The position numbers and the translations under genes were made by a program. A model generated the notes under the pieces. It ran no database searches. It saw nothing but the letters and a program-made list of their open reading frames with translations, and was not told the origin of the DNA. DNA of 30,837 nt, taken from Solirubrobacteraceae bacterium. Its GTDB lineage: Bacteria > Actinomycetota > Thermoleophilia > Solirubrobacterales > Solirubrobacteraceae. Below are positions 538 to 28,874 of this stretch, piece after piece; the stretch's first letter is position 1, and the number at the start of each line of letters is the position of its first letter. The stretch spans positions 1-30,837 of the forward strand of contig JAXDFS010000040.1 of the NCBI GenBank assembly GCA_034665465.1. Reading direction: 5' to 3'.

Positions 538-564
538 TCAAGGATGACCGGTCGGAGCCGATGA
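538..564 (+). promoter_or_regulatory. sigma28 (FliA/WhiG/SigD-type) promoter for the flgF operon
   Basis: TCAA(538-541)-N15-GCCGATGA(557-564). ATG 573 lies 8 nt downstream, so the transcript is probably leaderless. Confidence 0.8.
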
Positions 565-572
565 CCTCCCCC

Positions 573-1262
573 ATGGAGCGTGGGCTGTACATCGCCGCAT
601 CCGGGATGCTCGCCGAGCAGGCCCGCCAGGACCTCATCGCCCACGACCTCGCCAACGCCTCGACGCCCGGCTACAAGCCCGACCGCGTCGCCAGCACGAG
701 CTTCGGCGACCTGCTGCTCAGCGACACCGCCAGCGGCCGGCCGATCGGCGCCCTCGGCCTCGGGACGCAGATCGACCGTCAGGTGACCGACACGAGCCCC
801 GGGCCGCTGCACGACACCGGCGAGCCGCTGGACTTCGCCGTCCAGGGCGACGGCTTCTTCGCCGTCCGCACCTCCGCCGGGGTGCGCTACACCCGCGACG
901 GCCAGTTCTCCGCGTCGGCTGGCGGCACGCTCGTCACCGCCGCCGGCGACGACGTCCTCGGCCCTGGCGGCGCACCCGTCCGGATCGGTGCGGGCGGCAC
1001 GGTGGCGCCCTCTGCGATCGGCGTCGTCGCGCTCACCAACGCCAGGCGCCAGGGCGACACCCTCTTCACCGGCACGCCGGGGGCCACCGCCACCGCCACC
1101 GGCACGGTCCGTGGCGGCGCGCTGGAGGGCAGCGCGGTCGACCCGGTCCACACGATGGTCGAGATGCTCGGATCGCTGCGCACCTTCGAGGCCGGCCAGC
1201 GCGTCATCACGACGATCGACTCGACGCTTGGCAAGGCCGCCAACCAGGTCGGTGCCGTCTGA
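573..1262 (+). CDS. flgF: Flagellar basal-body rod protein (FlgF/FlhO-like)
   Basis: MERGLYIAASGM...DLIAHDLANASTPGYK...TGEPLDFAVQGDGFF...YTRDGQF...LEGSAVDPVHTMVEM, the standard rod/hook N- and C-terminal motifs. Start taken at ATG 573 from the promoter position (561 is an alternative). Confidence 0.85.
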   Translation: MERGLYIAASGMLAEQARQDLIAHDLANASTPGYKPDRVASTSFGDLLLSDTASGRPIGALGLGTQIDRQVTDTSPGPLHDTGEPLDFAVQGDGFFAVRTSAGVRYTRDGQFSASAGGTLVTAAGDDVLGPGGAPVRIGAGGTVAPSAIGVVALTNARRQGDTLFTGTPGATATATGTVRGGALEGSAVDPVHTMVEMLGSLRTFEAGQRVITTIDSTLGKAANQVGAV

Positions 1263-1999
1263 TGCTCGAGGGCCTCAAGGCAGCCGCGACCGGCATGACC
1301 GCGCAGCAGACGCGGATGGACGCGCTGTCCAACGACATCGCGAACGTCAACACGACCGGCTACAAGCACGAGCGCGTCGCCTTCGGCGACCTCGTCGCCT
1401 CCGCGACCGGCCCCGGCTCCGCGCAGACCGTCGCCGCCGGCGCGGGCGTCGCCGTCGGTCCGGCGGGCCGCGGCACGGGCCAGGGCGCGCTGCACACGAC
1501 CGACCAGCCGCTCGACGTCGCCATCCAGGGCGACGGCTACCTGCAGGTCAAGCTCGCCGACGGCCGCACCGGGATGACCCGCGACGGCTCGCTGCACGTC
1601 GACGCGCGCGGGCGCCTGATGACCTCTTCGGGCGCGCTGCTGCAGCCGCCGGTCACCCTCCCGCGCGGCGTCTCCGCCAAGGACCTGACGATCCACCCCG
1701 ACGGGACACTCAATGCCCAGGGCAAGCCGATCGGCCGCATGGCGCTCGTCAACGTCGTCGCCCCGTCCAAGCTCGACGACGCCGGCAACGGCGTCTACAC
1801 GGCCAACGCCGCCAGCGGCCCGCCGCGGGTGGCCGGCACGAATACGACGCTCGTCCAGGGGGCGCTGGAGTCCTCCAACGTCGACATCGCCGACGCCATG
1901 GTCGATCTCATGGACGCCCAGCGCAGCTTCCAGATGGCAAGCCAGGCGGTCCGCACGCAGGATCAGATGCTGTCGATCGCCAACGGGCTGAAGACATGA
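1262..1999 (+). CDS. flgG: Flagellar distal rod protein (FlgG/FlhP-like)
   Basis: SNDIANVNTTGYK, LDVAIQGDGYLQV, TRDGSL, LESSNVDIADAMVDLM..AQRSFQM. TGATG overlap with the upstream gene. Confidence 0.88.
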   Translation: MLEGLKAAATGMTAQQTRMDALSNDIANVNTTGYKHERVAFGDLVASATGPGSAQTVAAGAGVAVGPAGRGTGQGALHTTDQPLDVAIQGDGYLQVKLADGRTGMTRDGSLHVDARGRLMTSSGALLQPPVTLPRGVSAKDLTIHPDGTLNAQGKPIGRMALVNVVAPSKLDDAGNGVYTANAASGPPRVAGTNTTLVQGALESSNVDIADAMVDLMDAQRSFQMASQAVRTQDQMLSIANGLKT

Positions 2000-2307
2000 C
2001 GAGCGCCGTGGACCTGCCGCCGCTGCCGGCCGGCACGGTGCTGCCACCCGAGGTGCGCGCGGGCGGCCCCGCCGCCCAGAAGGACTACCGCACCGCGCTC
2101 GCCTTCGAGCGCGAGCTCGTCGGCCAGCTCACGAAGGCGATGCAGGCCACGGTGCCCACCGACGAAGACGACGACGCCGGCGTTGGCGCCGCGACGAAGA
2201 CCTACCGCGACATGCTGCCCGGGACGATGGCCGACGCGCTCGTCGCCGGCGGCGGCATCGGCCTCGCATCCGACCTCATGCGCTCCCTGCGGACCGGTGG
2301 CCAGTGA
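1996..2307 (+). CDS. FlgJ-like rod-binding (rod cap) protein, no muramidase domain, 103 aa
   Basis: ATG 1996 (ATGA overlap). AFERELVGQLTKAMQAT...YRDML...MADALVAGGGIGLASDLMRSL matches the Rod-binding domain pattern. Confidence 0.75.
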   Translation: MTSAVDLPPLPAGTVLPPEVRAGGPAAQKDYRTALAFERELVGQLTKAMQATVPTDEDDDAGVGAATKTYRDMLPGTMADALVAGGGIGLASDLMRSLRTGGQ

Positions 2308-2834
2308 CCGTGGGCTTCGCGACGCCGATCGCCGAGGACGTGCTCGCGCACCTCGACGCCCAGCTGGGCTCCGCGCGCAGGCTGCTCGCCCAGGTGCTGC
2401 GCCAGAGCGGCGCGATCCGCCGCCGCGACGTCGACGGCGTCCTGGCGACGATGACCGACATCCAGAGCGAGATGGCCTCGCGCGGACGGCTGGAGAGCGA
2501 GCGCACCGAACTGCTCTGGCGCGCGGGCAGCGCGCTCGGCATCTCCGCCGAGGCGGTGACGCTCGCCGAGCTGACCAGCCTCATGGACGGGGCCGACGCC
2601 GACGACGCCCGCGCGCTCAGCGCCGAGCTGCGCGGCCTGCTCGGCGAAGTCGAGCGCGAGCACGCGATCAACCGCGCGCTCATGCGCCAGGAGCTGTCCT
2701 TCCTCGAGCACCTCACGCGGATGCTCGGCGGCGGCAGCGAGAGCTCCGGCTACCGCCCGCCCAACGGCCATCCCGCCGGGCGCCCCGGCGCGAGCTCCCG
2801 CTCCGCGCTGCACGTCCTCGACCTGGAGGCCTGA
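2304..2834 (+). CDS. flgN: FlgN export chaperone for FlgK/FlgL
   Basis: Helical protein immediately upstream of flgK. HAINRALMRQELSFLEHL resembles the FlgN 'N..N..L...L' pattern. GTGA overlap with the previous gene. Confidence 0.75.
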   Translation: MTVGFATPIAEDVLAHLDAQLGSARRLLAQVLRQSGAIRRRDVDGVLATMTDIQSEMASRGRLESERTELLWRAGSALGISAEAVTLAELTSLMDGADADDARALSAELRGLLGEVEREHAINRALMRQELSFLEHLTRMLGGGSESSGYRPPNGHPAGRPGASSRSALHVLDLEA

Positions 2835-2837
2835 CCC

Positions 2838-4151
2838 GTGCCGATCTCGACATTCATGGGGCTGCACACGTCGCTGCGGGGGCTGCTGGCAGAGCAGCGC
2901 GCGCTCGACGTCACCTCGCACAACGTCGCCAACGCCAACACGCAGGGCTACTCGCGCCAGGAGGCGCAGCTGCAGGCGACCGACGCCCTCGCGCTGCCGA
3001 CCGGCGGCCAGCTCGGCACCGGCATCGACGTCACCGCCTACAAGCGCATCCGCGACAGCTTCCTGGACCTGCAGTACCGCGCCCAGTCGATGCAGGTCGG
3101 CGCCGGCACGACCCGCGCCGACGGCCTCTCGCAGGCCGAGCTGCGCCTCGCCGAGCCCGGCGACAACGGCATCGCGGCGCGCCTGAGCAGCTTCTGGAGC
3201 TCGTGGGCGGACCTCGCCAACGCGCCCGACAGCGGCGCCGCCAAGCAGGCGCTGATCGAGAACGCCCGCACGCTGGCGAGCTCGGTCAACGCGCTCGACT
3301 CCGGCCTGGCCGGCGTCTCGACGCAGTCCGCCGACGAGCTCACGGCGATCACGGCGACGGGCGGCGAGCTGCAGCAGATCGGCAAGGAGCTCGCCGGCCT
3401 CAACGGCGCGATCCGCGACACCGAGCGCGTCGGCGGTCAGCCCAACGACCTGCTCGACCGCCGCGACGTCCTGCTCGACCGGCTCTCGCAACTCGCGCAG
3501 GTCTCCGTCGCCGACAACGGCGCAGGCTCGATCCGCGTCACGGTCGGGGGCGCCGGCGCCCCGCTCGTCGACGGCTCGGCGCTGACCTGGCCGCCGCCGG
3601 CGATGACGAGCCCGGGCGGCAAGCTCGGCGCGCTCATGGACCTCAGCTCCCCGACCGGCACGATCGCCTCCTACCGCGGCGACCTGGCGAACTTCGCGCA
3701 GGCGCTGACGACGCAGGTCAACGCGGTCTACAACCCTGCCGCGGGCGTCGACTTCCTCGCCTACAACGCGGGGACCGCGACGCTTACGGTGAATCCCGCC
3801 GTGACCGCCGCCAACGTCCGCGCCGGTGGCGGCGCGGCCGGTGACAACAGCGCCGCGCTCGCGCTCTCCGAGCTGCGCGGCCGATCCGGCGGCCCCGACG
3901 ACCTGTACTCCCGGCTCGTCACGCGGATCGGCACCGAGGTCGCCGACGCGCGGCGCGGTGAGCAGAACGCCACTGCGCTGTCGGAGTCGATCGAGGATCG
4001 CCGCCAGAGCACCGCCGGCGTCTCGCTCGACGAGGAGATGACGAACCTCATCCGCTTCCAGCGCGGCTACCAGGCCGCGGCGCGCGCGATGACGACGACC
4101 GACACGCTGCTGGACACGCTCATCAACCGCACCGGCCGCGTGGGGCTGTAG
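2838..4151 (+). CDS. flgK: Hook-associated protein 1
   Basis: LDVTSHNVANANTQGYSRQ, KRIRDSFLDLQYR, PNDLLDRRD, STAGVSLDEEMTNLIRFQRGYQAAARAM. Confidence 0.95.
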   Translation: MPISTFMGLHTSLRGLLAEQRALDVTSHNVANANTQGYSRQEAQLQATDALALPTGGQLGTGIDVTAYKRIRDSFLDLQYRAQSMQVGAGTTRADGLSQAELRLAEPGDNGIAARLSSFWSSWADLANAPDSGAAKQALIENARTLASSVNALDSGLAGVSTQSADELTAITATGGELQQIGKELAGLNGAIRDTERVGGQPNDLLDRRDVLLDRLSQLAQVSVADNGAGSIRVTVGGAGAPLVDGSALTWPPPAMTSPGGKLGALMDLSSPTGTIASYRGDLANFAQALTTQVNAVYNPAAGVDFLAYNAGTATLTVNPAVTAANVRAGGGAAGDNSAALALSELRGRSGGPDDLYSRLVTRIGTEVADARRGEQNATALSESIEDRRQSTAGVSLDEEMTNLIRFQRGYQAAARAMTTTDTLLDTLINRTGRVGL

Positions 4152-4154
4152 ACG

Positions 4155-5063
4155 ATGAGCACGCCCCGCATCACGAGCTCGATGATCTCTCGCAGCACGC
4201 TGGCCGACCTCAACGACGTCGCCACCCGGATCACCGACACGCAGCGCAAGATGTCAACGGGCAAGCAGCTCACGCGCCCGTCCGACGACCCCTTCGCGGT
4301 CGGCCGCGCCCTCGGGCTGCACACCGAGGTCGACGGCCTCGTGCAGTACCAGCGCAACTCCGCCGACGGCGAGTCCTGGACCGCCGCCAGCGACACCGCG
4401 CTGGGGACGCTCACCGACATCGCCCAGCGCGGCCGCGAGCTGCTGGTGCGCGGGGCCAACGGCACCGCGACGGCAGGCGAGCGCGCGGTCGTCGCCGACG
4501 AGATCGACCAGCTCATCGAGGCCGCCAAGCAGACCGCCAACAGCCAGCAGGGCGGGCGCTCGCTCTTCGCCGGGACGGCGACGGACGTCAAGCCCTACGC
4601 CGCCGGCTCGGACGTCTACGCCGGCGACGGCGGCGACGTCGTGCGCTCGATCGGCCCCGGCGTCGCGGTCGTCGTCAACGTCCGCGCGTCCGACATCCTT
4701 GGCAGCGGCGGCGGCGACGGCAAGATGCTCAGCGTCCTGCGCGACGTCTCCGCTCATCTGCGCGGCGGGACCTCCGCCGACCAGGCGGCGCTCGGCGGCG
4801 GCGACATCGCCGCGGTCGACCGCTCGATCGACGACCTGCTCGGCGCGCGCGCCCACATCGGCGCCGTCGCCAACCGGCTGTCGGCCGCCGACGACCGGCT
4901 CGCCGAGCTCGAGGGGGGCGCCCGCGAGCTGCTCTCGAAGACCGAGGACGCCGACATGGCGTCGACCCTCATCGACTACTCGATGCAGCAGTCCGTCTAC
5001 CAATCCGCGCTGAAGGCGGGCGCGGGCATCGTGCAATCTTCCCTGCTGGACTTCCTGCGCTGA
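4155..5063 (+). CDS. flgL: Hook-associated protein 3
   Basis: QRKMSTGKQLTRPSDDP, EDADMA...QQSVYQSALKAGA.IVQSSLLDFLR. Confidence 0.95.
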   Translation: MSTPRITSSMISRSTLADLNDVATRITDTQRKMSTGKQLTRPSDDPFAVGRALGLHTEVDGLVQYQRNSADGESWTAASDTALGTLTDIAQRGRELLVRGANGTATAGERAVVADEIDQLIEAAKQTANSQQGGRSLFAGTATDVKPYAAGSDVYAGDGGDVVRSIGPGVAVVVNVRASDILGSGGGDGKMLSVLRDVSAHLRGGTSADQAALGGGDIAAVDRSIDDLLGARAHIGAVANRLSAADDRLAELEGGARELLSKTEDADMASTLIDYSMQQSVYQSALKAGAGIVQSSLLDFLR

Positions 5064-5083
5064 CCCCCGAGGAGCCTTCTGAC

Positions 5084-5539
5084 ATGTCACTGACCGTAGA
5101 GAGCACACGCTTCGGCACCCTCGAGATCGAGCCGGAGGCCGTGCTGTCGTTCCCGCGCGGCCTGATCGGCCTGGGCGGCTCGCGCTACGCGCTGCTGAGC
5201 ACCGAGCCCGACAGCCCGTTCTCCTGGCTGCACTCCGTCGAAGATCCCGGCCTCGCGCTGCCGGTCACGCGGCCGTGGGGATTCTTCCCCGGCTACGAGG
5301 TCCTGCTGTCCGATGCCGAGGCCGCCTCGCTGGGCATCAGCGGTGAGGCCCCGACCGACGTCTGGGTCACCGTCCGCGCGACCGAGCGCGTCGAGGACTT
5401 CACGGTGAACCTGCGCGCGCCGATCATCGTCATCGCCGGCGCCACCGGCCCCGAGGCATTTCAGGTGATCAACGACGCCCCCGGCGCCGACGTGCGGGTC
5501 CCCCTGTTCGCCGCCGGCGCGGACGTCGCAGCCGCCTGA
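5084..5539 (+). CDS. fliW: Flagellar assembly factor FliW (CsrA antagonist)
   Basis: STRFGTLEI, FPRGLIGL, PFSWLHSVEDPGLALPVTRP, TVNLRAPIIV. GGAG RBS; lies directly before csrA. Confidence 0.92.
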   Translation: MSLTVESTRFGTLEIEPEAVLSFPRGLIGLGGSRYALLSTEPDSPFSWLHSVEDPGLALPVTRPWGFFPGYEVLLSDAEAASLGISGEAPTDVWVTVRATERVEDFTVNLRAPIIVIAGATGPEAFQVINDAPGADVRVPLFAAGADVAAA

Positions 5540-5603
5540 CCACCCCGGCGACCGGGCGGTTGCCGACCGATTGGCCGCCGCCGGGGGGCGGACACTAGTC
5601 TTG

Positions 5604-5635
5604 TCCTCCCTCGCAGACACCGGATCCAGGGAGGA
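5604..5635 (+). promoter_or_regulatory. Anti-SD hairpin sequestering the csrA ribosome-binding site
   Basis: TCCTCCCT(5604-5611) is the exact reverse complement of AGGGAGGA(5628-5635), which contains the SD 3 nt before GTG 5639. A TANNNT hexamer (TAGTCT) lies at 5596-5601. Confidence 0.5.
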
Positions 5636-5638
5636 ACC

Positions 5639-5866
5639 GTGCTCAGCATCACGCGCCGCGTCGGCGAGCGCATCGTCATCGGCGACGACATCGTCCTACA
5701 CGTCCAGGAGGTCAGCGGCAGCACGGTGCGCATCGGCATCGAGGCGCCGAAGGCGATGCCCGTCTACCGCGAGGAGATCTGGGCCGCCGTCAAGGAGGAG
5801 AACGCCGCTGCCGCGAGCGCGGCGAAGGACCTGCCGAGCGGGCCGCTGAAGCCGCCCGCCTCCTGA
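5639..5866 (+). CDS. csrA: Carbon storage regulator CsrA
   Basis: MLSITRRVGERIVIGDDI.L.VQEVSGSTVRIGIEAPKAMPVYREEI, with a GGAGG RBS. Confidence 0.95.
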   Translation: MLSITRRVGERIVIGDDIVLHVQEVSGSTVRIGIEAPKAMPVYREEIWAAVKEENAAAASAAKDLPSGPLKPPAS

Positions 5867-5913
5867 CGGCCCGCGAAAAATCAACCGCGGCGGGCCCGAG
5901 CCTGCCCACCCGC

Positions 5914-5941
5914 TAACCCGCCGCCGGACGCGAGCCGATGC
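5914..5941 (+). promoter_or_regulatory. Weaker candidate sigma28 promoter for the PAS-GGDEF-EAL gene
   Basis: TAAC(5914-5917)-N16-GCCGATGC(5934-5941). GTG 5948 lies 6 nt downstream and has no SD. Confidence 0.45.
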
Positions 5942-5947
5942 AGTCCC

Positions 5948-8900
5948 GTGGCCTGGCGCATCGACCTCGTGACAAACGCCGTGATCGCGGTTGCCTACTT
6001 CGGCATCTTCGCGGTGATCTTCAAGGGCCTGCGCCGCTCCGGCCAGCTGCACTCCAACCGCCTGGGCCTGGCGACGGCAGCGATCTTCTTCAGCTGCGGG
6101 ATGGGACACCTGCTGCACGTCGACCACCTGGTCGCGCCGTCGTTCGGCTGGGCGCTGGCGTCCGAGACGCGCGCGGGCGTCGACTGGCACCTGGCGCTGT
6201 GGGACGGGATCACGGCCGGCGTCGCGGTGACCTACTTCTGCCTGCGCAAGAGCTACGGCCAGCTGCTGCTCGGCCCGGCGATCTTCGACGACCTCGCCCG
6301 CGGCTCCGGCGAGCGCGCGCTGCGCAACGCCGAGCAGCTCTTTCGCACGGCCTTCGAGAACGCGCCGATCGGGATGGCGCTCGTGGGCCTCGACGGGCGC
6401 TTCAAGCGCGTCAATCGCTCGCTCTGCGAGATCGTCGGCCTCGACGCGGCCGCCCTGCTCGCACACACCTTCCAGGAGATCACCCACCCCGACGACCTCG
6501 ATGCCGACCTCGAGCTGCTGCGCGAGCTGATCGCCGGCGAGTGCCCGTCCTACTCGATCGAGAAGCGCTACGTCCACTCCACCGGCCGTTTCGTCTGGAT
6601 CGAGCTGCACGTCTCGCTCGTGCGCGACGAGGACGGCGAGCCCGTGCACCTCGTCTCCCAGATCCGCGACATCAGCTCCCAGAAGGCCGCGGAGGAGCAC
6701 CTCGGGCGCTACCTCGCGGTCGTCGAGTTCGCCGAGGACGCGGTCGTGGCGACCGATCTCGAGGGCCGGATCATGACCTGGAACCGCGGCGCCGAGCGCC
6801 TCTACGGCTACGCCTCCGATGCTGCGATGCAGCAGTCGATCGCGCTGCTGCAGCCGGCCGACCGCGTCGGCGAGGTCGACGTCATCAACGGCGAGATCGC
6901 CGCCGGGCGCACGGTCGAGCGCCTGGAGACCAGGCGGCGGCGCCAGGACGGCAGCCTCGTCGACGTGCAGATCACCGTGTCGCCGGTGCGCGACCGCGCC
7001 GGCCGCGTCGTCGGAGCCTCGACGATCGCCCGCGACGTCACGCAGGCGGTCCTCGCGGAGCGCTCTCGCACGCTGCTCGAGCGCGACCTCGCCAAGGCGC
7101 ACGACCGCTACGCCCACGTCCTCGCGGCGGCGACCGAGTGCGCGATCATCGGCACCGACTCCAAGGGCGTCGTCACCGTCTTCAACACCGGCGCCGAGCG
7201 GATGCTCGGCTACCGGGCCCGCGACCTCGTCGGCCACGCCACGCTCGAAGCGCTGCACGACGCCGGGGAGATCGCGGCGCGCGCCAGGGCGCTGGGCATC
7301 GGGCCGGGCTTCGAGGTGCTCGCGGCGACCGCGCGCGAGGGCGGCGCCGAGACCCGCGAGTGGACCTACCTGCGCCGGGACGGCAGCCACGTCGCCGTGA
7401 GCGTCACGGTGACCGCGCAGCGCGAGCGCGGCCTCATGACCGGCTTTCTGGCGATCGCGACCGACATCACCGACGTCAAGCGCGCCGAGCGGGCGCGGCG
7501 CGAGGCCGAGGAGCTCTTCCGCGGCGCCTTCGAGCACGCGCCGATCGGCGTGGCGCTCGTCGCCGCCGACGGCGCCGAGGCGGGAGCGATCGTCCGGGCC
7601 AACCACGCGCTTGCCGATCTCGTCGGCGGCGACCCGGCCACCCTGGCCGGCCGCGACCTCGTCGCGCTCGCCCGCCAGGAGGACCGCGCCGAGCTCGCCG
7701 CGACGCTCGCGCGGCTGCTCGACGGCGCCGAGAGTGTACACGGCGAGCAGCGGCTGATCGCCGCCGACGGGCACGACATCTGGACGCTGCTGTCGGGCTC
7801 GCTCGTGCAGGGCTCGGAGGGACGCGGGCGCCAGGCGGTCATCCAGGTGCTCGACATCACCGAGCGCAAGACGTTCGAGGGTCGCCTGCAGCACCTCGCC
7901 GACCACGACGCGCTGACCGGCCTCGTCAACCGCCGCCGCTTCGAGCACGAGCTCGACCGCGCGCTCGCGCACGCGGAGCGCTACGGCAGCCGCGGCGCGG
8001 TGCTGCTGCTGGACCTCGACGGCTTCAAGTACATCAACGACGCGCTCGGCCATTCCGTCGGCGACGAGCTGATCATGCGCATCGCGGGCGTCATCCGCGG
8101 GACGCTGCGCGAGACCGACCTCGTCGCCCGGATCGGCGGCGACGAGTTCGCGGCCATCCTGCCCGAGGCCGACGCGCAGACGGCGGCCGTGGTGGCCGAG
8201 AAGCTGCTGTCGGCGATCCGCCGCCAGGGCAGCGTCGAGACGAGCGCCAAGCGCCAGGCGCGGGTGACGACGTCGATCGGCGTCACGGTCTTCGACGGCG
8301 TCCGCGGGCTCACGGGCGAGGACCTGCTCGTGGAGGCCGACATCGCGATGTACGACGCCAAGGACGCCGGGCGCGACGGCGTCAAGGTCTACAGCGACGA
8401 GGAGCGCAGCCGCGAGCAGATCAACGTCCGCGCGACCTGGCTGGAGCGCCTGCGCTCGGCCGTCGCCGACGACCGCTTCCGCCTCGTCGCCCAGCCGATC
8501 GTGTCGCTCGGCGAGCCGGGCGTGCCATGGCTGGAGCTGCTGCTGCGCTACGAGGACGACGACGGCGACCTCGTCCCGCCCGGCGCGTTCCTGCCGATCG
8601 CCGAGCGCTTCGACCTCATCTGCGACATCGACCGCTGGGTGCTGCGCGAGGCCGTGCGGCTGCTGCACGACGAGCACGCCGCCGGCCGCGACGTCTCACT
8701 CGCGGTGAACCTCTCGGGCCGGACGATGAGCGACCCCGGACTCGGCGAGTACCTCGAGTCGCTGCTGGCCGCGCAGCCGATCCAGCCCGGGCGGCTCGTC
8801 ATCGAGGTCACCGAGACTGCCGCGATCGTGAACATCGACCGCGCGCGGCGCCTGGCCGAGCGCCTGCACGCGCTCGGCTGCCGCTTCGCGCTCGACGACT

Positions 8901-9205
8901 TCGGGGCGGGCTTCGCCTCCTTCTACTACCTCAAGCACCTCGCCTTCGACTATCTGAAGATCGACGGCGAGTTCGTCCGCCAGCTCGTGCACGACCCCAC
9001 CGACCAGCTCGTCATCCAGGCGGTGGTGAACATCGCGCGCGGCCTCGGCACGCGCACGGTGGCCGAGTTCGTGGGCGACGAGCCGACGGTCGAGCTGCTG
9101 CGCAGCCTCGGCGTCGACTACGGGCAGGGCTATCACCTCGGGATGCCGACGCCGATCGCGCAGGTGCTGGAGGCGGCGGCGCGCGAAGGCGTGTCCGGGC
9201 TCTAG
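5948..9205 (+). CDS. Membrane-anchored diguanylate cyclase/phosphodiesterase: ETR1-like N-terminal TM sensor, 4 PAS/PAC, GGDEF, EAL
   Basis: Four PAS repeats (FENAPIGMA..THPDD; WNRGAERLYGY; FNTGAERMLGY; FEHAPIGVA). GGDEF domain with DALTGLVNRR, DLDGFKYINDALGHSVGD, RETD I-site and RIGGDEF. EAL domain with ELLLR, VNLS, IEVTET, LDDFGAG, KIDGEFV, AEFVG and GQGYHLG. Confidence 0.93.
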   Translation: MAWRIDLVTNAVIAVAYFGIFAVIFKGLRRSGQLHSNRLGLATAAIFFSCGMGHLLHVDHLVAPSFGWALASETRAGVDWHLALWDGITAGVAVTYFCLRKSYGQLLLGPAIFDDLARGSGERALRNAEQLFRTAFENAPIGMALVGLDGRFKRVNRSLCEIVGLDAAALLAHTFQEITHPDDLDADLELLRELIAGECPSYSIEKRYVHSTGRFVWIELHVSLVRDEDGEPVHLVSQIRDISSQKAAEEHLGRYLAVVEFAEDAVVATDLEGRIMTWNRGAERLYGYASDAAMQQSIALLQPADRVGEVDVINGEIAAGRTVERLETRRRRQDGSLVDVQITVSPVRDRAGRVVGASTIARDVTQAVLAERSRTLLERDLAKAHDRYAHVLAAATECAIIGTDSKGVVTVFNTGAERMLGYRARDLVGHATLEALHDAGEIAARARALGIGPGFEVLAATAREGGAETREWTYLRRDGSHVAVSVTVTAQRERGLMTGFLAIATDITDVKRAERARREAEELFRGAFEHAPIGVALVAADGAEAGAIVRANHALADLVGGDPATLAGRDLVALARQEDRAELAATLARLLDGAESVHGEQRLIAADGHDIWTLLSGSLVQGSEGRGRQAVIQVLDITERKTFEGRLQHLADHDALTGLVNRRRFEHELDRALAHAERYGSRGAVLLLDLDGFKYINDALGHSVGDELIMRIAGVIRGTLRETDLVARIGGDEFAAILPEADAQTAAVVAEKLLSAIRRQGSVETSAKRQARVTTSIGVTVFDGVRGLTGEDLLVEADIAMYDAKDAGRDGVKVYSDEERSREQINVRATWLERLRSAVADDRFRLVAQPIVSLGEPGVPWLELLLRYEDDDGDLVPPGAFLPIAERFDLICDIDRWVLREAVRLLHDEHAAGRDVSLAVNLSGRTMSDPGLGEYLESLLAAQPIQPGRLVIEVTETAAIVNIDRARRLAERLHALGCRFALDDFGAGFASFYYLKHLAFDYLKIDGEFVRQLVHDPTDQLVIQAVVNIARGLGTRTVAEFVGDEPTVELLRSLGVDYGQGYHLGMPTPIAQVLEAAAREGVSGL

Positions 9206-9369
9206 CACGGGCCTGGGTGGCGCGGCGGGCGTACGCGCCATCTGCCGCCGCGTGGCGGCAGCGCCGAGGTGTCCTGCCCAGCGGTCGTCCTGCGACCAAT
9301 ATCCAGGACGCTGGGCGCGCCTCCCTCATCGATGCAGTCAACGCCCGGCTCTCCGACGCCGACTGCGGA

Positions 9370-11481: not shown

Positions 11482-11508
11482 TCATCGGCGCCGATCGCCG
11501 GGACTTGA
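11482..11508 (-). promoter_or_regulatory. sigma28-type promoter for the formyltransferase-CHAP operon
   Basis: Minus strand CTCAAG: TCAA-N15-GCCGATGA. ATG 11469 lies 12 nt downstream. Confidence 0.8.
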
Positions 11509-11529: not shown

Positions 11530-11556
11530 TCAAGAAGCGCCGCCAAGCGCCGACCA
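11530..11556 (+). promoter_or_regulatory. sigma28-type promoter for GT module 1
   Basis: TCAA-N15-GCCGACCA. GTG 11564 lies 7 nt downstream. Confidence 0.78.
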
Positions 11557-11563: not shown

Positions 11564-12358
11564 GTGACCAGCGCCCCACTCGCCGTCGTGCCCGCCTACC
11601 TGCGAACCGCCGATGACCTCGACGCGCTGCGCCGCTGCCTGCACTCGCTTGCGCAGACGGCGCCCCAGGCGCAGGTGCTCGTGGTCGACGACTGCAGCCC
11701 GGCGGGTGAGCTCGTCGCCATGCTCGAGGTGGCCGCCGCAGAGGACGGCTTCGAGCTCGAGCGCCGGCCCCTCAACGGGGGCTTCGCGGCGACCGTCAAC
11801 GCGGGGCTGCGCCGCGCCCTGGCGCAGGAGCGCGACGCGGTGCTCGTCAGCCCCGACGTCGAGTTCCATGCGGCCGGCTGGCTGGAGGCGATGCTCGCCC
11901 GCACCGGCACCGACGCCCGCCCGGCTGCGGTCGTCGGCGCGCGCCTGCTGTATCCCAACGGGCTGCTGGCGCACGCCGGCATCCTCTTCTCGCTGCTGCA
12001 CCGCGGCTTCGCGCACCGCTACAACCTCGGCCCGGGCGAGCTGCCCGAGGCGCTCGTGCCCTGGCGCTGCCCGGTCGCGGGCGCGCTGCAGCTCATCCGC
12101 CACGACTGCCTCGCCGAGGTCGGCGTCTACGACGAGGCCTTCAACCTCGGCTGGGAGGACGTCGACTACTGCCTGCGCGTGTTCGCCGCCGGGCGCGAGT
12201 GCATCTACGAGCCGGCCGCCTGCGCGACGCACAGCGGGTCGCTGTCTCGCTCGCGCACAGCCAAGGGCCAGGAGGACTGGGAGCGCCGGGCGCTCGAGGT
12301 CCTGCTCGCCAAGCACGCCGCCGCCGACCTGTCCGCGTTCGTTCCGGCCTACGCATGA
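11564..12358 (+). CDS. Family 2 glycosyltransferase (module 1)
   Basis: [54 protein letters not shown]. The DxD position reads SPD. Confidence 0.88.
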   Translation: MTSAPLAVVPAYLRTADDLDALRRCLHSLAQTAPQAQVLVVDDCSPAGELVAMLEVAAAEDGFELERRPLNGGFAATVNAGLRRALAQERDAVLVSPDVEFHAAGWLEAMLARTGTDARPAAVVGARLLYPNGLLAHAGILFSLLHRGFAHRYNLGPGELPEALVPWRCPVAGALQLIRHDCLAEVGVYDEAFNLGWEDVDYCLRVFAAGRECIYEPAACATHSGSLSRSRTAKGQEDWERRALEVLLAKHAAADLSAFVPAYA

Positions 12359-18396: not shown

Positions 18397-18441
18397 GTCG
18401 CCAGCCGTCGCGGGATGGTGGCCGGGGGGCTCCGGCGTGCC

Positions 18442-18468
18442 TCAAGGCCGCGCTCGCCCGGACGATTA
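18442..18468 (+). promoter_or_regulatory. sigma28-type promoter for GT module 2
   Basis: CTCAAG: TCAA-N15-GACGATTA. GTG 18477 lies 8 nt downstream. Confidence 0.7.
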
Positions 18469-18476
18469 CCCTGGCC

Positions 18477-20323: not shown

Positions 20324-20373
20324 CGCGGGCGCGCGTGCACGGGCTGCGGCGCGTCGCCATCTAGCCTCCGCTG

Positions 20374-21351
20374 ATGCTCGCAGCTTGGTACGAGCGGCCG
20401 GGACCGGCGTCCGAGGTCCTTCAGGTCGGTGAGATGGCGGTGCCGCAACCGGGCCCTGGGGAGGTCCGGGTACGCGTGACCGTCTCCGGCGTCAATCCCG
20501 GCGATACGAAGAAGCGCGCGGACTGGGTCGGCAGCGGGATGCCGTTTGCGCGGGTCGTTCCGCACAGCGACGGTGCGGGCGTGATCGAGGCCGTCGGCGA
20601 CGGCGTGGACCCTGCCCGTGTCGGCCGGCGCGTCTGGGTGTACGGCGCGCAGTCCTACCGGCCTTTCGGCACCGCCGCCCAGTTCACGACCGTGCCCGCC
20701 GAGCAGGCACGGGAGCTGCCGGACGCCGTCAGCGACGCGATCGGCGCCTGCCTGGGCATTCCCGGCATCACGGGCCACCGCGCGGTCTTCGCAGACGGGC
20801 CGGTGGCCGGGAAGACGATCCTGGTCCATGGCGTGCTCGGATCCGTCGGCCTGATGGCGGCGCAGCTTGCAGGCTGGGGCGGGGCGACCGTCATCGGGAC
20901 CGTGCGTCGCAGCAGCGACCTCGACCAGGTCGATGCGACGGTGGCACACGCCGTGGCGCTGGACGAGCCCGAGCCGGCCGCGGCGATCCGCGCGCTCGCC
21001 CCCGGCGGCGTGCAGCGAATCGTCGAGGTCTCGTTCTCCGACAACGCGGATCTCGATGCCGCGATCGCCGCGCCGGACGCGGTCATCGCCGCGTACGCGT
21101 CACGCGACGCGCGGCCGGACTTCCCGTTCTGGACCATGCTCTTCGCGAACGTCACGATCCGCCTGCTCGGCAGCGACGACTTCCCGCAGGACGCCAGGCG
21201 GCAGGCAGCCGAGGACCTCACGAGCGCGGCGCGCGACGGAGCGCTCTCGATCCCGATCGGCGAGCCGCTGGGCCTCGACCGCATCGCCGAGGCCCATGAC
21301 CGCGTGGACGCCGGGCCGCGACAGCGCGTGCTGGTGACGATCCCCGACTGA
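20374..21351 (+). CDS. NADPH:quinone reductase / zinc-independent MDR-family oxidoreductase
   Basis: GVNPGDTKKR, VPHSDGAGVIEAVGDGV, GRRVWVY, GTAAQF, ILVHGVLGSVG. TAGCCT -10 (20362-20367) lies 6 nt before the ATG. Confidence 0.9.
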   Translation: MLAAWYERPGPASEVLQVGEMAVPQPGPGEVRVRVTVSGVNPGDTKKRADWVGSGMPFARVVPHSDGAGVIEAVGDGVDPARVGRRVWVYGAQSYRPFGTAAQFTTVPAEQARELPDAVSDAIGACLGIPGITGHRAVFADGPVAGKTILVHGVLGSVGLMAAQLAGWGGATVIGTVRRSSDLDQVDATVAHAVALDEPEPAAAIRALAPGGVQRIVEVSFSDNADLDAAIAAPDAVIAAYASRDARPDFPFWTMLFANVTIRLLGSDDFPQDARRQAAEDLTSAARDGALSIPIGEPLGLDRIAEAHDRVDAGPRQRVLVTIPD

Positions 21352-21401
21352 ACTGAAAACCCGCCCGGCTGACGCCGCCGGCTCGCGGTAGCGTCCCCCG
21401 A

Positions 21402-22067
21402 ATGCGACGCACCCCCGCACAGCGGGCCCTGCGCCAGCTTCGTCGGGTGCGGTCGTACAAGCGCTACCACCGCCGAACGCGGCGGCGGGTGCCCTGGCTG
21501 CAGACGATCGCCGTGACCGCGTTGCTGCCGCTCCTGTCGCTGATCTCGCGAGTGCGGATCGCCGGGCGCGAGAACATCCCCGACGGCGGCTATATCGCAG
21601 CGGCCAACCATCGTTCGAATCTCGACGCGCTGTTCGTCGCGCTTGCGATCCGGCGGCGCATCAGGTTCATGGGAAAGAGCGAGCTCTTCGACGGGCGCTG
21701 GGGATGGCTGCTGAACCGCATGGGGGCCTTCCCGGTGCAGCGCGGCGTGTGGGACGTGGAGGCGTTCGAGACCGCGGCGACGGTGCTCAACCGCGGGCTG
21801 GTGATGAGCATCTTCCCGGAGGGCGGGATACACACCGGTCGCGTGGCGGCAAAGTCCGGCGTCGGGCACATCGCCCACCTCGCCGGCGCGACCGTCCTAC
21901 CGGTCCACCTGGACGGGACCCGCTCGCTGTACACGCCGTGGCGCTGGCCGAAGGTGCGGGTCGAGATCGGCGCCCCGTTGTACGTCGAGGAGCTCGCGCA
22001 GCCCTCCCGCGAGCAGTCACAGCGCACCGCGCAGCGCATCCTCGACGCGATCTACGACCTCGCTTGA
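21402..22067 (+). CDS. 1-acyl-sn-glycerol-3-phosphate acyltransferase (PlsC family)
   Basis: NHRSNLD (HxxxxD), FMGKSELF, GAFPVQRG, IFPEG. TAGCGT -10 (21389-21394) lies 7 nt before the ATG. Confidence 0.9.
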   Translation: MRRTPAQRALRQLRRVRSYKRYHRRTRRRVPWLQTIAVTALLPLLSLISRVRIAGRENIPDGGYIAAANHRSNLDALFVALAIRRRIRFMGKSELFDGRWGWLLNRMGAFPVQRGVWDVEAFETAATVLNRGLVMSIFPEGGIHTGRVAAKSGVGHIAHLAGATVLPVHLDGTRSLYTPWRWPKVRVEIGAPLYVEELAQPSREQSQRTAQRILDAIYDLA

Positions 22068-22099
22068 ACGACGTCGCCGGGGCCGGGCCCGCGACTCCA

Positions 22100-22915: not shown

Positions 22916-22964
22916 GCGGCGCACGCTATCGCGACCGGCCGGATCCCTCGACCCCCGGCGGGGC

Positions 22965-22991
22965 TCAAGAACGCCCTCCAGCGGCCGACCA
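22965..22991 (+). promoter_or_regulatory. sigma28-type promoter for GT module 3
   Basis: CTCAAG: TCAA-N15-GCCGACCA. GTG 22999 lies 7 nt downstream. Confidence 0.8.
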
Positions 22992-22998
22992 CCTGCGC

Positions 22999-23799
22999 GT
23001 GACGGATTCCCTCGCCTGTCTCGCCGTCGTGCCGACCTACCTGCGCACCGAGCAGGACCTCGACGTGGTCCTGCGCTGCCTGGTCTCCCTGCGCCAGACC
23101 GCCCCGGAGGTCGAGGTGCTCGTCGTCGACGACTGCAGCCCGGCCACGAAGCTGGCCGACCTCATCGAGATGGCCGCCGAGGAGCTCGAGATCGAGCTTT
23201 GCCGGCTGCCGCTCAACGGCGGCTACTCGCGCGCGGTCAACGCAGGCCTGCGGCGCGCCCGCGACGGGGGCCGCGACGCCCTGCTCGTCGACTCCGACGT
23301 CGTCTTCGACCACTCCGGCTGGCTCTCGCCGATGATCGCGCGCACCGGCACCGACGGCATGCCGGCGGCCGTCGTCGGCGCGCGGCTGCTCTTCCCCACC
23401 GGGATGCTCCAGCACGCCGGCCTGCACTACTCGACGCTCACGCGCGACTGGTCGCACCGCATGACGTTCGGCCCGGCCGACCTGCCCGAGGCGCTCGTGC
23501 CGTGCAGCTGCCCCGTGAGCGCCGCGCTGCAGCTCATCCGCCACGAGTGCCTCACCGCCGTCGGCCTCTACGACGAGAGCTTTCGCATGGGCTACGAGGA
23601 CGTCGACTACTGCCTGCGCGTGTTCGCCTCGGGCCGCGAGTGCGTCTACGAGCCCGCGGCCTGCGCCACCCACGCCGAGAAGACCTTCCGCGGGCGCCCC
23701 GGCGACGGCCAGGCCGACTGGGAGCAGCAGTCGCTGCGCGCGCTCAACACGAAGTATCCGACCATCGAGATGACGGGATTCCGGCCGTGCTACGAGTGA
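22999..23799 (+). CDS. Family 2 glycosyltransferase (module 3; motifs intact)
   Basis: [47 protein letters not shown]. Confidence 0.9.
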
Positions 23800-25660: not shown

Positions 25661-25670
25661 GCTCACGGAC

Positions 25671-27743
25671 TCACGCCGCCAGGCGGGTCGCCGTCCAGCG
25701 CCCGACGAGCTGCGCGAGCTCCTCGACGCCGTCCTCCGCGAACCGCGGCAGGTCGGCGAACGCGGCCCGCTCGCCGTGCACCGCGCTGAGCAGCCCGACC
25801 ATCCCCGACGCGACCGCCGCGTCGGCGCCGTCGACCGGCGCCTCGGGCGCGACCAGCAGCAGATCGGGGCCGCCCTCGTCGAGGCCCGCGGCCAGCAGCG
25901 CCTGTTCGAGGCGCTCGGCGACGTCGGGAGAGCCCGGCGCCGGCTCGTAGAGCACGAGCGTGACCGGGTCCTCGGCGCCGAAGCGCTGCCCATACGCGGC
26001 GAGCAGCGCGGGGTGGGCGATCGCCTCCTCGGCGAGCGCGAGCACGTGCGCGCGCTCGACGTGCAGGCGGTCGATCGCATGCGGGCCCATCGCCAGCTGC
26101 AGCTCGCCCTCCAGCGCCTCGAGCAGCTCGCGGCGCTGGTCGTCGAGCGGCATGCCGGCCAGCGCGAGCACATGGGCCGCGAAGTGCGACCCCGGCAGAT
26201 CGACCCAGGGGTCGGGCAGCTGCAGGCGGTTGTTGTCGGCGAAGTGCTGCAGCGTGCGGCGCAGCACGGCGTCCAGCGGCAGCGCGCCGCCGAGGTCCCA
26301 CTCCTCGTCGATGACCTGCCACTCGCCCGACTGCGGGGCGACGACGATGTTCCACCAGGTCGCGTCGAAGGCGGTGCCGCGCAGCAGCGCCACGCCGTCG
26401 TCGTCGGTCGTGCCGATGCCGTAGCGCTCGACCAGCCAGCGCGCATGCTCGGCGACGAGCAGAGCCAGGCGCGCCCCGACTCCCTGCGCCGTGAGCGCCT
26501 CGTGGGCGCGCAGCGCGAGCAGGTCGCCGCGGCGGAAGGGCTCGGTGCCCAGGCGCTGGCGCACCCCGCAGGCGGCCGCGACGCGGCGGCGCTCCTCGGA
26601 GGCCTCGCCGCCCTCGGCCAGCCACGCGGGCTCGTGCTCGACGACCGCCTCGCCGCTGCCCGTGCGACGCAGCGTGGCGCGCTTGGTGAACGCCGGGCGG
26701 CGCTCCAGCGACCAGTGCCGCGCGACCCAGTCCAGGTCGAGCCCGTGGCGCGCCGCCGACGCCTGCGCGTCGCCCGCGAAGGCGACGATGAGAAAGGAGT
26801 TGGCGACGTCGGCGAGCAGCCCCGCCTCGGCGAACTCGCGCGTGGCGAGCGTCTCGTTGAACGGCAGCCGGTTGCGCACGGCGCCGCGGTCGGGCGCGGG
26901 CGTGTCGACCCAGTTGTGGATGCGGTCGGACGGGAGCATCGCGTCGGCGTTGACGATCGTCTTGGCGAGCTTGTAGTCCGGGAACGGGAGCAGCAGCGCC
27001 TGCTCGGCGAAGCCGGCCTCGGCGACGAGCTCGCGCAGCTCGCGCGCGTTGAACGTCTGCGCCTGGCCGCCGCCGGCATAGCCGGTGATCGAGTCGTAGG
27101 GCCGCCCCGAGTGGTCCTCGCGGGCGCCGGCGATGTACTTCAGGCCGAGCCGGTTCTCGATCGCCAGCACGAGCATGCCGTCGTCGTGCAGCGCGCGCCG
27201 CGCGAGCGTGAGGTTGGCGAGCGCAGCGAGCCGCGGGTCGCTCGTGTCGGGGTGGTACTCGTGGCCGTACTCGAGCACCCCGATCAGGGTCACGAGGTCG
27301 AAGGCGTCGCGCTCGTCGAGCTGTGAGTAGTTGCCGACGTAGACCTCGACGTGCTCCTGGTCGCGGCAGCGCAGCCGGGTGACCCGCGCGCGCGCAGCGC
27401 TGCCCTCGATCGCGTGCACCTCGCCGCAGTGGTCGCCGAGCCAGCGCGTGATCGCGCCGCAGCCGGCGCCGAGCTCGAGCACCCGCGCGTCGCCGGCGTG
27501 CAGGCCCAGCGCGTCGAAGAGCGTCACCCGCAGCGGCGAGAGGTGGTAGGTCGTCACCCAGTCGCGGATGTGTCCCCGCATCTCGGCCGAGCCGATGGCG
27601 AGGTCGCGAGCGGAGGTGAAGATGCTCGCGAGATGCGCCTCGCCGCCGTCGAGGTAGCGAGACGGCTTGGCCTCGTGGGGCGCGAGCCGCAGCCCGGTGT
27701 GGCGATCGCGGCGAAACGCGTCGAGCGGGAAGGAATCGGACAT
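25671..27743 (-). CDS. Class I SAM methyltransferase fused to a kinase-like domain and an unknown C-terminal domain
   Basis: VLELGAGCGAITRWLG, AIEGS, FDLVTLIGVLEY, IENRLGLKY.AG..EDH, FPDYKL. Later EPFRRGDLL...DATWWNI...VIDEEW. Confidence 0.85.
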   Translation of the reverse strand: MSDSFPLDAFRRDRHTGLRLAPHEAKPSRYLDGGEAHLASIFTSARDLAIGSAEMRGHIRDWVTTYHLSPLRVTLFDALGLHAGDARVLELGAGCGAITRWLGDHCGEVHAIEGSAARARVTRLRCRDQEHVEVYVGNYSQLDERDAFDLVTLIGVLEYGHEYHPDTSDPRLAALANLTLARRALHDDGMLVLAIENRLGLKYIAGAREDHSGRPYDSITGYAGGGQAQTFNARELRELVAEAGFAEQALLLPFPDYKLAKTIVNADAMLPSDRIHNWVDTPAPDRGAVRNRLPFNETLATREFAEAGLLADVANSFLIVAFAGDAQASAARHGLDLDWVARHWSLERRPAFTKRATLRRTGSGEAVVEHEPAWLAEGGEASEERRRVAAACGVRQRLGTEPFRRGDLLALRAHEALTAQGVGARLALLVAEHARWLVERYGIGTTDDDGVALLRGTAFDATWWNIVVAPQSGEWQVIDEEWDLGGALPLDAVLRRTLQHFADNNRLQLPDPWVDLPGSHFAAHVLALAGMPLDDQRRELLEALEGELQLAMGPHAIDRLHVERAHVLALAEEAIAHPALLAAYGQRFGAEDPVTLVLYEPAPGSPDVAERLEQALLAAGLDEGGPDLLLVAPEAPVDGADAAVASGMVGLLSAVHGERAAFADLPRFAEDGVEELAQLVGRWTATRLAA

Positions 27744-27750
27744 GGGCTGG

Positions 27751-27777
27751 TGTTCGGCAGCAGCCGCGCGTCCTTGA
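27751..27777 (-). promoter_or_regulatory. sigma28-type promoter for the methyltransferase-GT92 operon
   Basis: Minus strand TTCAAG: TCAA-N15-GCCGAACA. ATG 27743 lies 7 nt downstream. Confidence 0.78.
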
Positions 27778-27800
27778 ACGAACGACGCAACGAGCGAGCG

Positions 27801-27834
27801 AACGCGAAACGGGCGGCCCCTGCGGGCCGCCCGT
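27801..27834 (-). terminator. Intrinsic terminator after fliC
   Basis: Minus strand CGGGCGGCCC-GCAG-GGGCCGCCCG followed by TTTCGCGTT, about 40 nt after the fliC stop. Confidence 0.75.
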
Positions 27835-27872
27835 CGCGTCGTGTCGGTCTGTGCGGACCGTTTTCGCTGTCG

Positions 27873-28778
27873 CTAGCGCAGCAGCGACAGGACCGACTGC
27901 GGAGCCTGGTTGGCCTGCGAGAGCATGCTCGTGCCGGCCTGCTGCAGGATCTGCGACTTCGTGAACTGGACCATCTCGTCCGCCATGTCGACGTCCCTGA
28001 TCCGGCTCTCCGCCGACACCAGGTTCTCCTGGTAGCTGGCGAGGTTGGCGATGCGGTGCTCGAGGCGGTTCTGGACGGAGCCGAACGTGGCCCGCGTGTC
28101 GGAGACCTCGGCGATCGCCTTGTCGATGTCGTCGAGCTTGACGGCCGCGAAATCGGCCACCGCGGCGCTCGAGCTGGCGTCGATGCTGGTGATCTTGCTC
28201 AGGCTGGTCGCCGACGCCGTCAGATCCGACGTCGAGATGGTGATGGTCTCACCGTCGTTGGCGCCGACCTGCAGGTTGATGGTGGAGGCGCTGCCGCCCC
28301 CGCCCACGACCGCGGATGCGCTGCCGGTGCCCGTAACGACCGGGGCACCGTCGATGTCGCCCTGGAAGAGCGCGATCCCGTTGAACTTGGTGTTCGTCCG
28401 GATGTCGCTGATCTCCTTGCCGAGCTGGCCGACCTCGGAGACGATCGCCTTCTTGTCGGTGTCGCTGAGCGTGTCGTTGCCGAACTGCGTGCGCAGCTCG
28501 CGGACGCGCTGCAGCATCGAGTGGACCTCGTTGAGCGCGCCCTCTCCCGTCTGCACGAGCGAGACGCCGTCCTGCGCGTTGCGCTGAGCCTGGCTGAGGC
28601 CGGTGATCTGGCCGCGCATCTTCTCGCTGATCGCGAGGCCGGCCGCGTCGTCGGCGGCGCGGTTGATGCGGTAGCCGGAGCTCAGGCGCTCCATCGACTT
28701 CGCCATCTTCTCGGAGTTGGCGACGAGCTGACGGTGGGTGTTGAAGGCTTCGACGTTGTTGTTGATACGAAGGGACAT
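27873..28778 (-). CDS. fliC: Flagellin, 301 aa
   Basis: MSLRINNNVEA, ERLSSGYRINRAADDAAGLAISEKMR, LQVGANDG, RATFGSVQNRLEH, ESRIRDVDMA, QANQAPQSVLSLLR. Confidence 0.98.
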   Translation of the reverse strand: MSLRINNNVEAFNTHRQLVANSEKMAKSMERLSSGYRINRAADDAAGLAISEKMRGQITGLSQAQRNAQDGVSLVQTGEGALNEVHSMLQRVRELRTQFGNDTLSDTDKKAIVSEVGQLGKEISDIRTNTKFNGIALFQGDIDGAPVVTGTGSASAVVGGGGSASTINLQVGANDGETITISTSDLTASATSLSKITSIDASSSAAVADFAAVKLDDIDKAIAEVSDTRATFGSVQNRLEHRIANLASYQENLVSAESRIRDVDMADEMVQFTKSQILQQAGTSMLSQANQAPQSVLSLLR

Positions 28779-28782
28779 GCGT

Positions 28783-28837
28783 TCATCTCCTTGATGACGT
28801 GTGGTGGATGTTGTCCCGAGGCGACTCCTTGTCGCCT
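28783..28837 (-). promoter_or_regulatory. Two AAGGA-loop hairpins in the fliC 5' UTR (candidate CsrA sites)
   Basis: AGGCGAC-AAGGA-GTCGCCT (28819-28837) and TCATC-AAGGA-GATGA (28783-28797). The second overlaps the SD. Confidence 0.72.
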
Positions 28838-28847
28838 GCGACCAAGG

Positions 28848-28874
28848 TCATCGGCCGCCCTGTCGGCAACTTGA
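28848..28874 (-). promoter_or_regulatory. sigma28 promoter of fliC
   Basis: Minus strand CTCAAG: TCAA-N15-GCCGATGA, 69 nt upstream of the fliC ATG. Confidence 0.88.

Follow-up and report, generated by a model that had tools for sequence, protein, structure and literature searches.

Predicted FliA/WhiG-type promoters, most of them placed for near-leaderless transcripts, at flagellar and flagellin-modification genes of a soil Solirubrobacteraceae

Introduction

In enteric bacteria, sigma-28 promoters follow the consensus TAAAGTTT-N11-GCCGATAA. The SigD regulon of Bacillus subtilis comprises the flgM-flgN-flgK-flgL-fliW-csrA operon, the flagellin gene hag and flhO-flhP, and its mRNAs are led by a Shine-Dalgarno (SD) sequence. 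Since flhO-flhP are rod genes of the FlgF/FlgG type and depend on SigD, rod genes under sigma-28 have a precedent. In B. subtilis, CsrA has two sites in the flagellin leader, of which one lies in the loop of a hairpin and the other over the SD, and FliW is its antagonist. Here, we describe candidate promoters of the sigma-28 family (FliA/WhiG) on a contig of 30.8 kb (C40), analysed over its entire length and called the window below. It belongs to a 3.38-Mb metagenome-assembled genome (MAG; G000) of an uncultured soil Solirubrobacteraceae, with 442 contigs, about 74% G+C and a completeness of about 80%. Among public sequencing runs, the best matches are soil metagenomes.

In a phylum-wide prediction for Actinomycetota, Denis et al. 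2026 described a WhiG1/2 consensus with xT(C/A)Ax at -35 and GCCGA at -10, several sites per flagellar cluster, and flagellin and cyclic di-GMP (c-di-GMP) enzymes as common targets (PMC13595943). In other Actinomycetota, c-di-GMP and RsiG control a WhiG2-like sigma factor. Denis et al. 2026 (PMC13595943) make no mention of Thermoleophilia, Solirubrobacter or Conexibacter, and leaderless transcripts are mentioned neither in that paper nor in Schumacher et al. 2021. The window, which carries a late flagellar operon and a flagellin-linked modification island, allows a comparison with these systems.

Results

FliA/WhiG-type sites in the window

The pattern TCAA-N15-GMCGA matches the window exactly seven times, at 538(+), 11508(-), 11530(+), 18442(+), 22965(+), 27777(-) and 28874(-), against 0.26 matches expected from dinucleotide shuffles, and 0 of 100 shuffles attained seven. 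All seven matches read (C/T)TCAAG-N14-G(C/A)CGAnnA with a spacer of exactly 15 nucleotides (nt) counted from TCAA, and every one is intergenic, on the right strand and directly 5' of a gene start. In a weight matrix built from these seven sites, they score 23.4-25.9 bits and the next best position of the window 16.2, and the distribution of scores in the window is clearly bimodal. The bipartite organisation expected of sigma-28 promoters, with a TAAA-like -35, a 15-nt spacer and a -10 resembling GCCGATAA with a CGA core, is found at all seven. Counting the sites found elsewhere in the genome, the correctly oriented sites stand 5' of flagellar, chemotaxis or related genes (the flgF operon, fliC, flgB, fliG, two cheW copies, flagellin-linked glycosyltransferases and a GGDEF-EAL gene).

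The first site (TCAAG-N14-GCCGATGA, 538..564, +) lies 8 nt before the ATG of flgF at 573, the distance being counted from the last base of the -10 8-mer. Two divergent sites follow, one ahead of a formyltransferase gene (TCAAG-N14-GCCGATGA, 11482..11508, -, 12 nt before the ATG at 11469) and one ahead of a GT2 glycosyltransferase gene (TCAAGAAG-N11-GCCGACCA, 11530..11556, +, 7 nt before the GTG at 11564). A GT2-like gene has its site (TCAAG-N14-GACGATTA, 18442..18468, +) 8 nt before the GTG at 18477, and the second copy of the GT2 gene (TCAAGAAC-N11-GCCGACCA, 22965..22991, +) 7 nt before the GTG at 22999. On the minus strand, the site of a methyltransferase gene (TCAAG-N14-GCCGAACA, 27751..27777) is 7 nt from the ATG at 27743. 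The fliC site (CTCAAGTT-N11-GCCGATGA, 28848..28874, -), the closest of the seven to the enteric consensus, is 69 nt from its start codon. The -10 elements thus fall into four subtypes, GCCGATGA, GCCGACCA, GCCGAACA and GACGATTA. A weaker site, TAAC-N16-GCCGATGC (5914..5941, +), stands 6 nt before the GTG at 5948 of a c-di-GMP enzyme gene. When the window sites were inspected, no SD was found ahead of the start codons at short distance. The original prediction had listed these seven sites, their TCAAG -35 and exact 15-nt spacer, the distances of 8, 12, 7, 8, 7, 7 and 69 nt with no SD at the short ones, and the weaker site, and each of these readings was reproduced. It had also ascribed the sites to sigma-28 and placed flgF-flgG under such a promoter, two proposals that agree with the bipartite motif, its conservation at orthologous positions, its targets in flagellar, chemotaxis and modification functions, and the presence of cognate sigma genes.

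We compared the sites with those of related genomes, flgF being carried by 14 of 36 sampled congeners and by one genome of another family. At each locus, the -35 and -10 are kept while the spacers drift (flgF in 13 genomes including the one from another family, fliC in 12 of 14, GT2 in 13 of 14, methyltransferase in 3 of 3). Every flgF orthologue is preceded by CTCAAG(G/C)ATGAC-N8-G(C/T)CGAT(C/G/A)A, 8-10 variable nt and ATG, except that the genome of another family has TAAA-N15-TCCGATTA, 8 nt and GTG. At the GT2 loci, the start codon (GTG or ATG) is at 7 nt in 12 cases and at 8 nt in one, and the 7 nt in between differ in sequence from locus to locus. The divergent formyltransferase/GT2 arrangement is kept in three relatives (G014, G030 and G034), with a formyltransferase distance of 13 nt in G014. 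Methyltransferase orthologues of G014 and G019 have the same -10 (GCCGAACA), followed by 7 nt and the start codon, as in the window (3 of 3 loci). The homologue of the 18477 locus in G021 reads TCAA-N16-GACGACTA, 7 nt and GTG. For fliC, CTCAAG-N14-GCCGAT(G/C)A is present in 12 of 14 loci at 69 nt (66 nt in one). The weaker site was recovered at three orthologous loci: two keep CTAAC-N16-G(T/C)CGATGC, 6 nt and GTG, and the third has a divergent version, TCAG...ACCGATAT, 7 nt before GTG.

Placement relative to start codons

At five of the seven sites, the -10 ends 7-8 nt before the start codon, and at the weaker site 6 nt before it; the formyltransferase (12-13 nt) and fliC (69 nt) depart from a leaderless placement. 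Across relatives, the distance is kept while the intervening bases change, at 7 nt for GT2 (12 of 13) and the methyltransferase (3 of 3) and at 8-10 nt for flgF. Two features anchor the start codons themselves: the N-termini are conserved, and the Pfam domains start at residues 5-10. The starts of the GT2 and methyltransferase orthologues align, and in every relative inspected (about 30 loci) the conserved N-terminus MERGLYIAASGM opens with the start codon. In Campylobacter jejuni, differential RNA sequencing found 6-8 nt between the sigma-28 motif CGATwt and the transcription start downstream of it (PMC3847290); a Cupriavidus transcription-start study yielded no usable spacing between the FliA -10 and the start. 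A -10 at 7-9 nt therefore predicts that +1 coincides with the start codon or precedes it by 1-2 nt. By the same reckoning, a leader of about 5 nt is expected for the formyltransferase mRNA, which would be short-leadered rather than strictly leaderless.

The same geometry is widespread in this genome. In 288 of 1776 long open reading frames (ORFs), a TANNNT motif has its end at 6-9 nt from the first start codon, with a background of about 3 per position; SD-like motifs show an excess of comparable size (roughly 340). Leaderless initiation therefore appears to be routine here, a general practice of the lineage that extends to an alternative sigma factor and is not peculiar to this regulon. The leaderless reading of the short-distance genes is well supported by motif position and comparative data, whereas the exact +1 positions and leaderless translation are deduced.

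The alternative that best survives accepts the sigma-28-type promoters and holds that the short-distance genes are not truly leaderless, because +1 lies slightly upstream, because a downstream start codon is used, or because the genes are mainly expressed by read-through from upstream promoters. The variation of the flgF distance among relatives (8, 9 or 10 nt) and the 12-13 nt of the formyltransferase and fliG sites speak for it. Nevertheless, we regard it as unlikely: the 7-nt spacing of the GT2 and methyltransferase genes is invariant in the comparisons given above, an SD cannot fit in 7 nt, the start codons are fixed by N-termini and the starts of Pfam domains, and the TANNNT promoters of the same genome share this geometry. 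Moreover, leaders of 1-2 nt were counted as leaderless in the Cappable-seq work on Actinoplanes missouriensis (PMC11064477).

In distant Thermoleophilia (loci L103-L109, L112-L114 and L116), the flgF promoter is still recognisable. MAGs of Solirubrobacteraceae and Conexibacter have it 8-10 nt from the start. In one Gaiellales MAG and in MAGs of unclassified actinobacteria, the distance is 38-55 nt, and a GGGAG SD is present in several of these. As judged from these loci, the flgF promoter interconverts between leadered and leaderless forms within the class.

The fliC leader

The flagellin gene fliC (27873..28778, -; Pfam Flagellin_N and Flagellin_C) has a predicted 5' leader of about 63 nt (28779..28841, -). 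This leader folds into a hairpin, GGCGAC-AAGGA-GUCGCC (-24.7 kcal/mol, z = -3.0), that shows AAGGA in its loop, and a second AAGGAG forms a strong SD, giving two CsrA-type GGA sites. The blocks of the leader are nearly invariant across 12 relatives. Since csrA and fliW are also in the window, the parts of a CsrA-FliW-flagellin checkpoint are all found. We propose that fliC retains its leader, 69 nt when counted from the -10, because it carries these two predicted sites. CsrA, whose binding to the leader is deduced from the sequence, would hold back flagellin translation until FliW releases it, by analogy with the hag checkpoint of B. subtilis.

Four soil metatranscriptome runs were compared with positions 27600-29000. 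Contigs of relatives span the coding sequence of fliC together with the 22 conserved nt ahead of its ATG. They stop where the leader is variable, and such ends more probably reflect breaks in the assembly than RNA termini. No contig covered the methyltransferase start in these runs. Many contigs from the four runs, which come from four studies, are 85-99% alike to the conserved ends of the flagellin gene (27882-28800); expression of such flagellins in soil is probable, though DNA may also be present in the libraries.

Candidate sigma factors

Two loci of the genome score above the cut-off of the FliA_WhiG family (TIGR02479), with 275 and 203 bits. The 203-bit type is found 1-3 kb upstream of flgF in G014, G019 and G034, and this paralogue, encoded beside the flagellar cluster, would be the sigma factor most likely to read the sites.

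A different reader, either a second, WhiG2-like paralogue or both paralogues sharing the sites, seems improbable to us, and more so than the previous alternative. It draws on the presence of two to three FliA/WhiG paralogues, on the similar promoters recognised by WhiG1 and WhiG2 (PMC13595943), on the c-di-GMP enzyme gene among the targets and on the several visible -10 subtypes. Against this, one paralogue is linked to the cluster at 1-3 kb from flgF, and WhiG1-type sigma factors co-occur with flagellar clusters (PMC13595943). In any case, a second paralogue would alter the acting sigma factor and not the kind of element.

Sites elsewhere in the genome

Genome-wide, the loose pattern gave 83 matches at the true spacer and 55-74 at in-phase control spacers. 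Shuffles ignore codon periodicity, and given these controls the loose pattern alone is non-specific: a codon-periodic background swamps the enrichment. We used instead the weight matrix, with controls whose spacers were shifted by 3, 6 or 9 nt so that codon phase was preserved. At 22 bits or more, this matrix found 16 matches versus 1-2 for shifted spacers, and at 20 bits 24 versus 3-7, and the sites precede flgB, fliG and both cheW copies. The idea that the matches are a product of chance or of coding bias in a 74% G+C genome, for which the 55-83 loose matches obtained whatever the in-phase spacer could be invoked, is effectively refuted by the seven matches in 31 kb versus 0.76 expected at genome-wide density, all intergenic and correctly oriented, by the bimodal scores and by conservation at orthologous positions across genera while neighbouring bases drift.

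Among the high-scoring matrix matches outside the window that are not within coding sequence, where gene starts were set by a heuristic based on third-position G+C (GC3), the distance to the start is 23 nt for flgB (with an AAAGGAG SD), 47-48 nt for the two cheW copies, 58 nt for an FG-GAP protein and 60 nt for an SLT/M23 hydrolase. It is 12-13 nt for fliG, which would have a short leader with no SD, 8 nt for a CBM96 protein, and 7 nt for a C5-epimerase-like protein and several small ORFs. The contiguous flagellar region of G014 holds 12 sites across about 60 kb, five of them at 7-9 nt from a start.

One of the best sites of the genome (C31:5070, +, 25.1 bits) precedes an SD-led ORF of 76 amino acids (aa) with no Pfam match, the size and position of which would suit an anti-sigma factor of the FlgM type. 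Of the possible starts, the ATG 63 nt downstream, with its SD, was preferred to an ORF opening 8 nt past this promoter. A sigma-28-type site, CTCAAGTCGAGCAGGAAATTGCCGATGC (20.7 bits), lies within the 3' end of flhA and is identical at C30:4367 (+) of G000 and at C3:105316 (-) of G014. An internal promoter at this place may serve the flhF-like and PilZ genes downstream, at the right end of the window. C30:4367 had also been considered as a leaderless site, being 7 nt before an apparent start, and was rejected as it is inside flhA.

The flgF operon and the c-di-GMP enzyme gene

Domains in the window were assigned with Pfam, and operon extents were deduced from tight spacing on the same strand only. 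By this measure, flgF to csrA (573..5866, +) is a probable single transcription unit. It contains the flgF-like rod gene (573-1262), a flgG-like gene (1262-1999), a rod-binding FlgJ-like gene (1999-2307), a FlgN-like gene (about 2304-2834), flgK (2838-4151), flgL (4155-5063), fliW (5084-5539; PF02623) and csrA (5639-5866; PF02599, 1.6e-21). The c-di-GMP enzyme gene behind the weaker site (5948..9205, +) encodes four PAS domains followed by GGDEF and EAL.

The promoter fills the 38-nt gap between the flgF ATG (573) and the start (534) of a divergent gene. This gene (1-534, -) encodes at least 178 aa, its start being only 38 nt from the flgF ATG, and neither a Pfam match for its product nor a promoter motif of its own was recognised in the window. 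In relatives, its homologue sits between the fliA of the cluster and flgF. Just past the csrA stop, about 60 nt before the GGDEF-EAL start, a block GAAAAATCAACCG (5875-5887) is kept in 4 of 4 orthologous loci amid variable flanks and might belong to a terminator or bind a regulator.

The flagellin-linked modification island

The formyltransferase gene (10741-11469, -) is followed on the same strand by a gene for a CHAP-domain hydrolase (10064 to about 10740), and the divergent GT2 gene occupies 11564..12358 (+), its Pfam domain starting at residue 8. Downstream of the 18442 site, the GT2-like gene (18477-19271, +; 264 aa, no Pfam match) is followed by a GT1/4-like gene (about 19268-20323, +), a zinc-type alcohol dehydrogenase gene (20374-21351, +) and an acyltransferase gene (21402-22067, +). 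A 628-aa ORF at 18437-20323 was rejected as a single gene, since the GT2-like and GT1/4-like genes occupy different frames. The GT2 protein encoded at 11564 is 45% identical to that of a G021 gene whose N-terminus resembles the 18477 gene, the latter being itself outside this comparison. The second GT2 copy lies at 22999..23799 (+), and the GT2 and GT2-like genes each head further sugar-modifying genes. On the other strand, a 690-aa protein with an S-adenosylmethionine-dependent methyltransferase domain is encoded at 25671..27743.

Discussion

Taken together, the seven sites and the weaker site at 5914 are probably promoters of the sigma-28 family (FliA/WhiG), most of them producing leaderless or near-leaderless mRNAs, with a fliC leader gated by CsrA. 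Such promoters would co-express with motility the late operon (flgF-flgG-flgJ'-flgN-flgK-flgL-fliW-csrA), the flagellin, the modification island (three GT2-led cassettes, the methyltransferase, and the formyltransferase with its CHAP hydrolase) and the c-di-GMP enzyme. At five sites, transcription would begin at the ATG or GTG or 1-2 nt before it, with translation proceeding without an SD, and only about 5 nt would precede the start codon in the formyltransferase mRNA.

Several observations weigh against this interpretation. The genome has at least two FliA/WhiG paralogues and G014 three candidates, one of which is just below the family cut-off, and the four -10 subtypes might therefore divide between paralogues. 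The seven sites themselves served to build the matrix, and without them the genome-wide excess is 9 versus 1-2. Some high-scoring matches of the genome are inside coding sequence (C3, C270 and C163). A distance of 12-13 nt, as for the formyltransferase and fliG, matches neither a strictly leaderless nor an SD-led mRNA. Lastly, the metatranscriptome contigs reach only the SD-proximal part of the fliC leader and carry no 5'-end information.

In the main, the original prediction holds, though its novelty and generality are smaller than its wording implies. It had seen the TCAA -35 as a variant private to this lineage, a view that does not hold: the published actinobacterial consensus is already T(C/A)A, and other Solirubrobacterales have TAAA at flgF. 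Its picture of a largely leaderless regulon fits most sites of the window, while the genome as a whole is mixed, with leaders at flgB, the two cheW copies, the FG-GAP and SLT/M23 genes and fliC. Within the leaderless set, five sites at 7-8 nt conform to it, and the formyltransferase, with its 12-13 nt and leader of about 5 nt, does not.

More tentatively, Solirubrobacteraceae could have one alternative-sigma regulon split by mRNA architecture, with leaderless mRNAs for genes that need only timing of transcription and SD-leadered mRNAs for genes that depend on high output or on post-transcriptional gating. At somewhat less than an even chance, the modification enzymes, the rod and hook-junction operon and the c-di-GMP enzyme would then be on the leaderless side, and fliC (CsrA/FliW), flgB and cheW on the leadered side. 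If this is true, the lineage would be a natural system for the study of leader gain and loss under an alternative sigma factor.

For an uncultured soil lineage of Thermoleophilia, this work maps the promoters of flagellar and flagellin-modification genes, with validation by comparison, and fixes several start codons. It ties the glycan-modification island and the c-di-GMP enzyme to the motility regulon, indicates that the -10 of an alternative sigma factor shares the leaderless geometry typical of actinobacterial housekeeping promoters, and accounts for the flagellin exception by a leader predicted to be regulated by CsrA. The TCAA variant of the -35 and flagellar clusters with several promoters are already published for Actinomycetota (PMC13595943). 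The findings extend known actinobacterial habits without a new mechanism, and the understanding of sigma-28 or of leaderless translation is unchanged.

Compared with the promoters of WhiG from Streptomyces venezuelae and Rubrobacter radiotolerans and of FliA1-3 from A. missouriensis (PMC13595943, PMC8325347), those described here have the same bipartite motif, in which the two leading bases of the -10 are variable. The systems are also alike in having several sites per cluster, flagellin and c-di-GMP targets and more than one paralogue per genome; unlike in the published ones, each cassette of the modification island has its own promoter. The order flgN-flgK-flgL-fliW-csrA under a sigma-28-type promoter is that of the SigD operon of B. 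subtilis, from which the present locus differs in that rod genes head the late operon and that most units except fliC are predicted to lack a leader. Finally, as in the leaderless mRNAs of Mycobacterium, Streptomyces and Actinoplanes (PMC3160421, PMC11064477), the -10 is 6-9 nt from ATG or GTG, no SD is present and a large fraction of the genome is concerned. However, the described actinobacterial cases mostly have the housekeeping TANNNT, whereas here the same geometry is found with the -10 of an alternative sigma factor (GCCGAnnA).

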